Origin: Escherichia coli
GTDB lineage: Bacteria > Pseudomonadota > Gammaproteobacteria > Enterobacterales > Enterobacteriaceae
Assembly: GCF_003334305.1 (NCBI RefSeq)
Contig: NZ_QOWS01000008.1
Reading direction: 5' to 3' (one strand)
DNA length: 64,000 bases
Below, piece after piece: positions 9,862 through 14,813 of this stretch. The notes under the pieces are model-generated. The model had not been told where the DNA came from, made no database searches, and was given only the letters and a program-made list of their open reading frames with translations. Numbering within the stretch: position 1 is the first letter of the stretch; each line of letters begins with the position of its first letter. The position numbers and the translations under genes were made by a program.

Positions 9862-10965
9862 TTACGCCAGTTGACGAAGCATCCGACGCAGCGGCTCCGC
9901 GGCCCCCCACAGCAGCTGGTCGCCCACGGTAAAGGCTGACAGGAACTCTGGTCCCATATTCAGCTTACGCAGGCGGCCTACCGGCGTGGTCAGCGTGCCG
10001 GTAACGGCAGCTGGGGTTAGCTCACGCATAGTGATTTCCCGATCGTTCGGAACGACTTTCGCCCACGGATTGTGCGCAGCCAGCAGTTCTTCCACGGTCG
10101 GAATAGACACATCTTTTTTCAATTTAATAGTGAATGCCTGGCTGTGGCAGCGCAATGCCCCGACACGCACACATAAACCATCTACCGGAATTACGGAAGA
10201 TGTGTTGAGGATCTTGTTGGTTTCCGCCTGCCCTTTCCACTCTTCGCGGCTCTGACCGTTATCGAGCTGTTTGTCGATCCACGGAATCAGGCTACCCGCC
10301 AGCGGCACGCCAAAGTTATCCACCGGCAGCTCACCGCTACGGGTTAAGGTTGTGACTTTGCGTTCGATATCGAGAATAGCAGAGGACGGGGTCGCGAGTT
10401 CATCTGCCACATGGCCATACAGATGGCCCATCTGGGTTAATAACTCACGCATATGTCGCGCACCACCGCCGGAAGCGGCCTGGTAGGTTGCAACGGACAC
10501 CCAATCAACAAGATCATTGGCGAATAAACCACCCAACGACATCAACATCAGGCTTACGGTACAGTTACCGCCAACAAAAGTCCTGATGCCATTATTTAAT
10601 CCGTCGGTAATGACGTCCTGATTGACGGGGTCAAGAATGATGATGGCGTCATCTTTCATGCGCAGAGACGATGCTGCGTCAATCCAGTAACCTTGCCATC
10701 CGCTTTCACGAAGCTTTGGATAGATTTCGTTGGTATAATCGCCGCCCTGACAGGTCACAATGATATCGAGGGCCTTTAGCGCCTCCAGATCAAAGGCATC
10801 CTGAAGTGTGCCAGTGGTTCCGCCAAAAGACGGCGCAGCCTGGCCAAGCTGAGAAGTAGAAAAGAAGACAGGGCGAATGGCGTCGAAGTCGCGCTCTTCA
10901 ACCATGCGTTGCATGAGAACGGAGCCGACCATACCGCGCCAGCCGATAAAACCAACATTTTTCAT
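9862..10965 (-). CDS. asd: aspartate-semialdehyde dehydrogenase
   Basis: ORF track 408 aa from 11088; recognised Asd begins [21 protein letters not shown] at internal ATG 10965 (367 aa). Confidence 0.94.
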
Positions 10966-11157
10966 AAGCGTTTTTTTCCTGCAAAGATGTGTGCTGTATA
11001 AATGTGCCGGTCTCCTCTTGGCACATCTTTCACCATACAAAAAGCAGCCAAAGTCGCAAGTGAAATTAATCAATGATAGCGAAGCCATCAGTAATGCGAC
11101 TTATCCTGCTTTGTTAGCACGCAGAAAGTCCGCGGCAATTATCAGGGAATTTGAGTT

Positions 11158-11807: not shown

Positions 11808-13148
11808 TTAACTCAACAGCTGGAACGCAATCATCCCAACGATGGCACCGACAGTGCCGAGGATGGTTTCCATCATGGTCCAGGTTTTCAGCGTTTCGGC
11901 TTCGGTCGCGCCGGTAAATTTACCGAACAACCAGAAACCGGCGTCGTTAACGTGGCTGACAACAATCGAACCACCAGCGATACAAATCGACAGCGCCGCC
12001 ATTTGCGCACCGGAGTAGTTCAGTTGTTCAATAACCGGCATCACCAGTCCTACCGCCGTTAAACAGGCTACGGTGGCAGAACCCTGAATGATGCGCACTG
12101 CAGCGGCCAGCACGAAGCAGGTGATGGCTATCGGCAGGCCCATGCCAGTTAACGCTTCGCCCAGTGCCGGACCTACGCCAGAGTCAACCAGCACCTGTTT
12201 GAACACGCCACCTGCACCAATCACCAGCAGAATGATCCCCGCCGGTTGCAGCGCGTGACCGCAAATCTCCATCACTTTGTCTTTTGGCATGCCCTGACGC
12301 ATTGCCAGGCCATAAATCGCTACCAGACAAGCAACCAGAATCGCGGTAAACGGATGACCAATAAACTCGAACCATTCGTAAGCGGTAGAGCCTTCTGGCA
12401 CAAAACGCGCGGCAATGGTTTTCAGCCCCACCAGCACCAGCGGCAACAGGATCAGCGACAGGCTGAATCCGAAAGATGGCATTTTGCCTTCGCCGAGATG
12501 CGGTTCGCTGATGTCGTCAGGAATATGCAACTCCACGTAGCGGCTGATGAAATTACCCCACAGCGGCCCGGCAATAATCATTCCCGGAATTGCCGCACAC
12601 AGGCCAATCAGGATCATCCAGCCAAAATCGGCGTTCATCTGCGATGCCAGCAGCATTGGCGCTGGCCCTGGCACCAGGAACGCCGCCGCTGCCGCCACGC
12701 CTGCGAATAATGGGATTACCAGCTTCACCAGGTTCGTACCGGTGTGGCGCGCCATTGAGAAAGCAACGCTAATCAGCAGAACAATCGCCACTTCAAAGAA
12801 CAGCGGTAGCGCACAGACCAGCCCCGCAAGGCCGATGGCATAATGCGCGCGGCTGTGACCGAAGGATTTAAGCATTTTGACGGCAATCTGATCGACTGCG
12901 CCGGTTTCATGTAAGATCTTGCCAAACATAGCTCCCAGGGCGACAACCACCGCCAGGAAGCCGAGGGTGCCTCCCATCCCTTTTTCCATCGTCGCTGCGA
13001 TTTTATCGAGCGGCATACCGGAAAAAAGGCCAGCCCCCATGGACACCACCATCAAAGCCAGGAAAGCGTGCATACGCGCCTTCATGACTAAAAACAGCAG
13101 CAGTAAAACAGACCCTACTGCTGTTAAAACAAGCGTTAATGTAGTCAC
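11808..13148 (-). CDS. gntU: low-affinity gluconate:H+ symporter (GntP family)
   Basis: 446-aa polytopic membrane ORF MTTLTLVLTAVGSVLLLLFLVMKARMHAF; immediately downstream of gntK. Confidence 0.94.
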   Translation of the reverse strand: MTTLTLVLTAVGSVLLLLFLVMKARMHAFLALMVVSMGAGLFSGMPLDKIAATMEKGMGGTLGFLAVVVALGAMFGKILHETGAVDQIAVKMLKSFGHSRAHYAIGLAGLVCALPLFFEVAIVLLISVAFSMARHTGTNLVKLVIPLFAGVAAAAAFLVPGPAPMLLASQMNADFGWMILIGLCAAIPGMIIAGPLWGNFISRYVELHIPDDISEPHLGEGKMPSFGFSLSLILLPLVLVGLKTIAARFVPEGSTAYEWFEFIGHPFTAILVACLVAIYGLAMRQGMPKDKVMEICGHALQPAGIILLVIGAGGVFKQVLVDSGVGPALGEALTGMGLPIAITCFVLAAAVRIIQGSATVACLTAVGLVMPVIEQLNYSGAQMAALSICIAGGSIVVSHVNDAGFWLFGKFTGATEAETLKTWTMMETILGTVGAIVGMIAFQLLS

Positions 13149-13151
13149 TAC

Positions 13152-13679
13152 TTATTTGCCTTTTTTAATAACCTCAATGGTGCTTGCCACAACACCTTCC
13201 AGCGGTTGATCGATATCCACCACCAGTACATCAGTTTCGTCCGCACCCGGCTCCTGCAGCGTTTCAAACTGCGTCACCAACATTTGGGTTTTAAAGAAAT
13301 GGCCTTTGCGCGCTTTCAGGCGGCTTTCAATCACGTCAAAATCGCCTTTCAGGTAGATGAAAGAGAGATTCGGATTACCTTCACGCAGCAAGTCGCGATA
13401 GTGTTTTTTCAATGCAGAACAGACGATCAGTGACACTTTATTAGTGCGCTGCATAGCAAACGCGGCGTCGTTCAGCGCCTGCAACCACGGTTTGCGATCG
13501 TCGTCATTCAGCGGTTCGCCAGACGCCATTTTTTCGATATTGCGCCGTGGATGGAGGAAATCGCCATCAAGAAACGCGGCATGAAGTTGATGCGCCACTT
13601 CACTGGCGACCGCAGATTTGCCGCTGCCCGATACGCCCATCAAGACGTAAATGTGGTGATCATGGTTAGTCGTGCTCAA
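13152..13679 (-). CDS. gntK: thermoresistant gluconokinase
   Basis: P-loop GVSGSGKS; ORF track starts at ATG 13700 (182 aa) but remembered protein (175 aa, MSTTNHDHHIYVL) corresponds to TTG start at 13679; start assignment uncertain between the two. Confidence 0.88.
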   Translation of the reverse strand: MSTTNHDHHIYVLMGVSGSGKSAVASEVAHQLHAAFLDGDFLHPRRNIEKMASGEPLNDDDRKPWLQALNDAAFAMQRTNKVSLIVCSALKKHYRDLLREGNPNLSFIYLKGDFDVIESRLKARKGHFFKTQMLVTQFETLQEPGADETDVLVVDIDQPLEGVVASTIEVIKKGK

Positions 13680-13707
13680 AGTGGTGCCCCCACAATACAA
13701 GAATTAA

Positions 13708-13740
13708 AAATGTTACGGGTAACTGTTATCGGTAACATTG
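13708..13740. promoter_or_regulatory. paired LacI-type half-sites, likely GntR operators in the gntK promoter
   Basis: Sequence AAATGTTACGGGTAACTGTTATCGGTAACATT contains two overlapping TGTTAC..GTAACA palindromic units between gntR stop and gntK start. Confidence 0.55.
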
Positions 13741-13817
13741 TCCAGCCGGACAATATCAGAAGCAATATCCATCCGTGCCTTAAGTGTATAAGTGTGAGCT
13801 ACTTCAAATTTGTGGGC

Positions 13818-14813
13818 TTAAATAGATCCGCCCGGTGACAAGGTGAAACCTAAATCTAACATTTTCGGTGTCACAGATTCGCCACGAATACGCGCCAGCA
13901 GGCGTTCAGCGCCAATACTGCCCATCCGCTCACGCGGCGTCAGCACGCTCGCTAACCGCGGCTCCATCACCTGGCCAATGTCATGACCGTGGAAACCGGC
14001 AATCGCCATATCGTCAGGAACCTTCAATCCCAGACGCTGACATTCAAACGCCGCGCCGACCGCCAGGTCATCGTTGGTACAGAACACGCCATCCATCTGC
14101 GGATATTCCCGCCGCGCCTGGCGAATCAGTTCAATACCGGAAGAGTAAGAAGAAGATTGCTCAACCATCACGCTATACGGCACCAGACCTGCATCCAGCA
14201 TCGCCTGTTCGTATCCCTTCTGTTTGATGATAGTACGTTCGTCGAGACGCGCGCCGAGATAGGCAATGTGGCAATGCCCGCGAGCAATAATGGCGGTGGT
14301 CATCTGGCGTGCCGCTTCAAAGTTATCAAAACCGACGGCGATATCGAGGCACGGCGACTGGCTGTCCATGAGTTCCACCACCGGGATCCCCGCCACTTCA
14401 ATCATCTTTAAGGTGCGCGGCGTGTGGGTACGTTCGGTGAGGATCAGTCCGTCGATATTCCATGAGAGCATGGATTCGAGACGTTCTTGCTCCATTTCCG
14501 GTTTATAACCGTAGTGCGCCAGCATGGTCTGATAACCGTGCGCGTCGGTGACGCTTTCGATTCCGCGTAATACTTCCGCGAAAACCTGGTTGGTGAGAGA
14601 AGGTAACAGGACGCCAATCGCCCGGCTGGTAGCGTTAGAGAGGATATCGGGCGCACGATTGGGAATATAGCCCAGTTCATCAAGAGCGGCGGCAATCTTG
14701 CCGCGTAGAGCGACGGAAACCTGCTCCGGGTTGCGTAAAAAACGGCTGACCGTCATTTTGGTCACGCCTACACGGTCAGCCACATCCTGAAGTACGGGTC
14801 TTTTCTTTTTCAT
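13818..14813 (-). CDS. gntR: gluconate operon repressor (LacI family)
   Basis: 331-aa ORF MKKKRPVLQDVADRVGVTKMTVSRFLRNPEQV with N-terminal HTH; matches E. coli GntR. Confidence 0.95.
   Translation of the reverse strand: MKKKRPVLQDVADRVGVTKMTVSRFLRNPEQVSVALRGKIAAALDELGYIPNRAPDILSNATSRAIGVLLPSLTNQVFAEVLRGIESVTDAHGYQTMLAHYGYKPEMEQERLESMLSWNIDGLILTERTHTPRTLKMIEVAGIPVVELMDSQSPCLDIAVGFDNFEAARQMTTAIIARGHCHIAYLGARLDERTIIKQKGYEQAMLDAGLVPYSVMVEQSSSYSSGIELIRQARREYPQMDGVFCTNDDLAVGAAFECQRLGLKVPDDMAIAGFHGHDIGQVMEPRLASVLTPRERMGSIGAERLLARIRGESVTPKMLDLGFTLSPGGSI

Follow-up and report, generated by a model that had tools for sequence, protein, structure and literature searches.

The 5′ end of gntK – the gene for the thermoresistant gluconokinase of Escherichia coli – raises two questions: which of two in-frame codons, 21 nt apart on the minus strand, starts the protein, and what role belongs to the two overlapping dyads in the sequence just upstream. 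We conclude with high confidence that translation starts at the TTG codon whose first base is position 13679, giving a 175-aa gluconokinase, and that the region comprises the 5′ end of gntK together with the gntKU promoter-operator. All positions are those of the window, i.e. the entire stretch of 64,000 nucleotides (64 kb) that was analysed.

The gene order in the window, yhgN-gntU-gntK-gntR-yhhW, is that of a segment of the E. coli chromosome, and an 801-nt query matches several E. coli strains (including H15) with 100% identity and is found in 5425 of 5426 complete E. coli genomes. In the RefSeq annotation gntR, encoding a LacI-family gluconate repressor, occupies positions 13818–14813, and gntU, encoding a low-affinity gluconate transporter and forming the second gene of the gntKU unit, occupies positions 11808–13148, both on the minus strand. 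The RefSeq gntK coding sequence of strain H15 maps onto positions 13152–13679 of the same strand, stop codon included, and the same 528 nt form the gntK coding sequence of MG1655 (NC_000913.3, positions 3577065–3577592). The region is thus the gntKU control region of the GntI gluconate system, which is curated in RegulonDB and carries an identical RefSeq annotation. Between gntR and gntK the window differs from MG1655 at one of 181 nt. This sole difference, a C/T change at position 13775, marks the window as belonging to a non-K-12 strain; it is located between the CRP-like site and the −35 hexamer described below, and falls outside every named element (promoter, operators, and CRP-like site).

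Three proteins encoded here are identified by their sequences as GntU, GntK, and GntR, through NCBIfam equivalog models above their curated cutoffs. GntK scores 373.6 bits against NF008583 (cutoff 265), within the GntK/IdnK-type TIGR01313 family, GntR scores 774 bits against NF011563 (cutoff 433), and GntU scores 915.8 bits against NF007781. GntK also has a P-loop of the form GxxGxGK[ST] close to its N-terminus, preceded by a beta-strand (IYVLMGVSGSGKS, residues 10–22 of the 175-aa form). The closest known alternatives, idnK (gntV) and IdnR, are members of homologous kinase and repressor families, but the window proteins do not reach the corresponding cutoffs, with GntK giving 184 bits against the IdnK equivalog (cutoff 304) and GntR giving 399 bits against that of IdnR, below its cutoff. 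GntR has nonetheless been reported to recognise IdnR sites also (PMC4052901). The weaker profile matches of GntR are all to LacI-family regulators (IdnR, RbsR, CytR, PurR, and GalR), which assigns it by sequence to the LacI/GalR family and not to the GntR/HutC family, and the gntK operators are therefore LacI-type palindromes.

The apparent start ambiguity is a product of the longest-ORF rule. The longest minus-strand reading frame of gntK runs from position 13700 to 13152, and a preliminary description of this DNA, which placed the beginning of the longest frame at an ATG at 13700, was right about the position and wrong about the codon: it is TTG (caa on the plus strand). The minus strand reads ...TAA TTC TTG TAT TGT GGG GGC ACC ACT TTG AGC ACG ACT AAC CAT GAT CAC CAC..., with two TTG codons in the same frame. 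The supposed competition from a longer frame that opens with ATG therefore does not exist, position 13700 being simply another TTG. The upstream TTG (13700–13698) follows closely on an in-frame TAA (13706–13704), and this stop codon caps any extension beyond 13679 at seven codons (MYCGGTT). There is no ATG in frame upstream of 13679 on the minus strand; the nearest upstream ATG of that strand, at 13738–13736, is out of frame and sits inside an operator. The same rule seems to have overcalled a further gene in the window, an asd-like gene at positions 9862–11088 on the minus strand, whose longest ORF of 408 aa (MASLSLINF...) extends well upstream of the apparent real N-terminus; it looks like another case of this kind.

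The downstream TTG (13679–13677) opens the coding sequence MSTTNHDHHIYVLMGVSGSGKS, translated as MSTTNHDHH..., and is preceded by a Shine-Dalgarno-like GGGGG 7 nt upstream (13687–13691). That the protein corresponds to a TTG start at 13679, as had been proposed earlier, agrees with RefSeq, which annotates the start at this codon in both H15 and MG1655. The MG1655 protein record (NP_417894.2, from NC_000913.3) is in its second version, i.e. its sequence has been revised at least once, perhaps to correct the start site. Crystal structures of GntK (PDB entries 1KNQ, 1KO1, 1KO4, 1KO5, 1KO8, and 1KOF) contain a 175-aa chain that begins with MSTTNHDHH and aligns to residues 8–182 of the longest ORF. 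The window protein is identical to 1KNQ over all 175 aa from the TTG-encoded methionine, although the N-terminus of a crystallised chain reflects the construct used and not the codon used by the cell.

To compare this start among relatives we used 80 species of Enterobacteriaceae, with one genome for each species. The codon homologous to that at 13679 is TTG in 77 of the 80 and ATG in the other three (Yokenella, Trabulsiella, and Buttiauxella), and exchange between TTG and ATG is the behaviour expected of a true initiation codon. Of 48 four-fold synonymous sites in gntK, 47 are less conserved than the first base of this codon. All 80 genomes have a purine-rich run (GGGGG, GGGAG, GGAGG, or GAGGGA) that starts at −11 to −13 relative to this codon. 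The distance from operator to start varies widely, with values such as 20, 24, 25, 28–35, 41, 42, 45, and 74–87 nt; these leader lengths differ by non-multiples of three, and the leader upstream of 13679 is thus not coding. Taken together, the comparative data leave essentially no ambiguity about where gntK starts.

Could translation instead begin at the TTG at 13700, to give a 182-aa GntK carrying the extension MYCGGTT, or could both TTG codons be used to make two isoforms? The 13700 frame is the longest ORF, and its TTG is inside the predicted leader transcript, which makes the position of the transcription start compatible with its use. Escherichia, Citrobacter koseri, some other Citrobacter, and a few further genomes keep an in-frame start at −21, and among three loci (L003–L005) the single codon difference within the extension is synonymous (TAT to TAC). 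Against this, just 15 of the 80 genomes have an in-frame start at −21, and most relatives have lost the 13700-type TTG or have it in another frame. In Salmonella it is displaced by a 1-nt indel that breaks the frame, and the same happens even within Citrobacter amalonaticus, in one of two genomes (L007 compared with L008). The upstream TTG is preceded by AACATTTTTAATTC, which has no Shine-Dalgarno-like or purine-rich run, and by a stop two codons upstream, and the Shine-Dalgarno sequence of the 13679 start would fall inside the seven-codon extension. The crystallised enzyme is the 175-aa form, and the family profile NF008583 begins at residue 1 of that short form, with its residues 1–174 aligned to residues 1–174 of GntK. 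Use of 13700, alone or as a second start, is accordingly extremely improbable, even if the E. coli sequence by itself would permit rare initiation there. The TTG at 13700 (13698–13706 together with the TAA) is most likely unused, a chance in-frame codon within an untranslated leader of about 50 nt.

Two other proposals for the 5′ end of gntK were considered and rejected. Initiation at the first in-frame ATG (Met14, position 13640) is contradicted by the conservation of residues 2–13 as protein, and a start there is rejected because it would delete the strand that precedes the P-loop. A riboswitch or otherwise structured leader in E. coli is contradicted by the folding of the leader, which is worse than that of its shuffled versions (z = +1.55), and no Rfam family matches the gntK leader. 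A literature search combining gntK, start codon, and TTG returned nothing relevant, and the portion consulted of the tetracycline-profiling supplements (PMC4909307) holds no entry for gntK or b3437. Since gntK is repressed without gluconate, its absence from rich-medium data sets would be unsurprising.

With the start placed at 13679, the dyads lie a short distance upstream. The preliminary description had noticed two overlapping TGTTAC/GTAACA dyads in the promoter region, and this proves to be correct. On the plus strand the 14-mers TGTTACGGGTAACT (13711–13724) and TGTTATCGGTAACA (13724–13737) each match TGTTACNNGTAACA at 13 of 14 positions; they are the only matches with no more than one mismatch in the 64 kb, where 0.09 are expected, and just one of 100 shuffles gave at least two such matches. 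The bare hexamer TGTTAC occurs 27 times in the window against 21 expected, which is no enrichment, and the spacing of the half-sites is important: TGTTAC-N4-GTAACA has no match at the gntK locus and one chance-level match elsewhere, the correct spacing being N2. A repeat finder reports a 13-nt direct repeat at 13-bp spacing at the operators, and 15-nt inverted arms that are 87% complementary. The dyad centres are CG and CC, and both dyads are imperfect palindromes of 14–16 bp that match the published consensus ATGTTACCCGTAACAT.

Both dyads are GntR operators, with GntR binding, its relief by gluconate, and the function of overlapping sites reported in the literature (PMC10450161; PMC4052901, citing Tsunedomi 2003a). 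O1 (ATGTTACCGATAACAG, positions 13723–13738 on the minus strand, centre 13730.5) has exactly the sequence of the natural operator cited in a study (PMC10450161) that gives ATGTTACCCGTAACAT as the consensus of the regulon and in which a single 16-mer suffices for GntR-dependent control. O2 (CAGTTACCCGTAACAT, positions 13710–13725 on the minus strand, centre 13717.5) agrees with that consensus at 14 of 16 positions. The suggestion that the dyads are consistent with GntR repression is borne out by these matches and by the 13 bp between the O1 and O2 centres, which is the gntKU arrangement described in PMC4052901. That paper, citing Tsunedomi 2003a, describes overlapping LacI-family sites about 13 bp apart as functional upstream of E. 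coli gntKU, and it finds the overlapping arrangement conserved for more than half of the GntR-regulated operons in gamma-proteobacteria.

The composite operator is present in all 80 genomes, and nearly all positions from GACAATGTTACCGATAAC to GTTACCCGTAACA are invariant. O2 varies at the base it shares with O1 and, in single genomes, at three other positions. The shared base pair, window position 13724, is common to both 14-mers and is the only freely variable position of the 27-bp composite operator, with A in 47 and T in 31 of 78 distinct sequences. A T here makes O2 a perfect TGTTACCCGTAACA palindrome, and an A, as in E. coli, gives O1 an additional match; because the two overlapping operators have this one base pair in common, it can complete the palindrome of just one of them at a time, and the position toggles between A and T.

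The inverted arms reported by the repeat finder surround one central base and their outer half-sites are exact TGTTAC and GTAACA hexamers, and the element of 29–31 bp could therefore be read as one long palindrome, AATGTTACCGATAAC-A-GTTACCCGTAACATT, bound by a single higher-order GntR complex that uses the two perfect outer half-sites only. In the 80 genomes, however, the inner half-sites (ATAAC and GTTAC) and the centres (CG and CC) vary no more than the outer half-sites. In a heterologous system, ATGTTACCGATAACAG by itself sufficed for control that depended on GntR (PMC10450161), and the alternation of A and T at the shared base is what two 14-bp palindromes in competition would produce. We consider a single long palindrome very improbable, and treat the element as two operators.

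The K-12 gntKU promoter-operator, as described by Izu 1997 and Tsunedomi 2003a (both as cited in PMC4052901) and by the RegulonDB entry for gntKp, is the same locus, and there is no substantial difference between the two: in both, a pair of GntR sites about 13 bp apart overlap each other, and there is a site for activation by CRP. The gntT operator, given as ATGTTACCCGTATCAT by Peekhaus and Conway 1998 in the quotation found in bioRxiv 10.1101/2023.01.10.523462, is similar to those of gntK, as is the consensus: all are 16-bp LacI-type palindromes with ATGTTAC and GTAACAT half-sites and a central CG or CC. Unlike gntT, gntK has two operators fused at a 13-bp offset with one base pair in common, and each of these has one perfect outer and one imperfect inner half-site.

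Promoter features were sought in the 80 upstream regions after anchoring them on the operators. A −10 hexamer, GACAAT (13737–13742, minus strand), is inferred from its presence in 74 of the 80 genomes, the other six having GA(G/A)AAT at this place, and a −35 hexamer, TTGCTT (13760–13765, minus strand), is found at the exact spacing of 17 bp from it in 77. Farther upstream is a CRP-like site, TTTGAAGTAGCTCACA (13793–13808, minus strand, centre 13800.5), which conforms to TTTGA-N6-TCACA in 78 of the 80 genomes; the half-sites are the same throughout and the spacer varies. The distance of the site to the operators is fixed in 74 genomes and 11 bp greater in four. This 11-bp shift (4/80) corresponds to one helical turn, so that the motif would stay on the side of the helix that it otherwise occupies with respect to the promoter.

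According to RegulonDB v8 (PMC3531196) CRP activates gntKp from −69.5. For comparison, the CRP motif of class I promoters (TGTGA-N6-TCACA) is centred near −61.5, −71.5, or −82.5. With the centre of the CRP-like motif at 13800.5, the RegulonDB figure puts +1 at about 13731. Transcription of gntK would then start at approximately 13731–13729, 6–8 nt after the −10 hexamer, and O1 and O2 would overlap this start, as judged from the conserved −35 and −10 hexamers and the RegulonDB position for CRP. A generic scan of the locus for sigma-70 promoters returned none on the minus strand, missing the −35 hexamer TTGCTT because only three of its six bases match TTGACA, and the corresponding scan for terminators of the locus returned none. 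Neither gntK nor a nearby coordinate is mentioned in the consulted text of two transcription start site data sets (PMC3415461 and PMC4782308), and that of a third (PMC4161252) gave no gntK entry.

A different pair of hexamers at 17-bp spacing is also present in E. coli, with −35 TTGTCC (13753–13748) and −10 GATAAC (13730–13725). Transcription from this promoter would start near 13718, with O1 over the −10 hexamer and O2 over the start, and repressor sites that overlap a −10 are common. Its −35 region is, however, less conserved than any other part of the intergenic region, while the competing TTGCTT-17-GACAAT is kept in 74–77 of the 80 genomes. With transcription starting near 13718, moreover, the CRP motif would be at about −82.5, and not at the −69.5 given by RegulonDB. 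We regard this second promoter as improbable, and favour the one formed by TTGCTT and GACAAT.

These features suggest a simple model for regulation of the locus. Transcription would begin near 13730 at a weak sigma-70 promoter (−35 TTGCTT, 17-bp spacer, −10 GACAAT), helped by cAMP-CRP bound at a site centred about 70 bp upstream. O1 would cover the transcription start and abut the −10 hexamer, and O2 would cover about +6 to +21, the pair being two LacI-type operators with centres 13 bp apart and one shared base pair. When gluconate is missing, GntR on O1 and O2 would block RNA polymerase, presumably by a steric mechanism, and when gluconate is present GntR would leave the DNA. Most likely GntR represses either by keeping RNA polymerase off the promoter sterically or by preventing promoter escape, and the binding of gluconate to GntR would lift this block. 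Translation starts at the TTG at 13679, with its GGGGG Shine-Dalgarno sequence 7 nt upstream, and yields the 175-aa gluconokinase.

Leaders of the Klebsiella/Raoultella type (at about positions 1425–1485 of their own loci) are longer, with 74–87 nt between the operators and the gntK TTG compared to 20–45 nt elsewhere; the loci concerned are L024, L025, L028, L029, L032, L033, L039, L045, L046, L055, and L063. The additional ~45–55 nt, which E. coli lacks, folds into a hairpin whose lower stem has compensatory changes, 5 of 22 predicted pairs being changed on both sides among 11 sequences.

At the other end of gntK, the start of gntU is also a weak codon. It is GTG in 58, TTG in 19, and ATG in none of the 77 genomes with a placeable gntU start. 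E. coli gntU starts with GTG, 3 nt after the gntK stop (window positions 13148–13154); the start is 12–14 nt after the stop in a few genomes, and overlaps it in others (TAGTG, GTGA). Because the gntU start abuts or overlaps the gntK stop, translational coupling of gntK and gntU is suggested.

Neither the TTG start of gntK nor the pair of overlapping GntR operators is new, both having been recorded before. The database start for gntK is right, and choosing the longest ORF would lengthen the protein by seven residues that do not belong to it; the codon is settled by comparison, through TTG/ATG exchange, a fixed Shine-Dalgarno distance, and upstream indels that break the frame. The gntKU operator pair is conserved nearly base for base across the Enterobacteriaceae, and the significance of these results goes little beyond annotation hygiene. 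Mildly new are the conservation of TTG at the start of gntK and the finding that gntU never starts with ATG, which hint at possible selection for weak initiation. A tentative reading, about which we are more doubtful than convinced, is that the weak start codons of gntKU are held by selection and that the A/T toggle at 13724 tunes which operator is the stronger across genera. If they are selected, the weak starts would limit how much kinase and low-affinity transporter each transcript yields.
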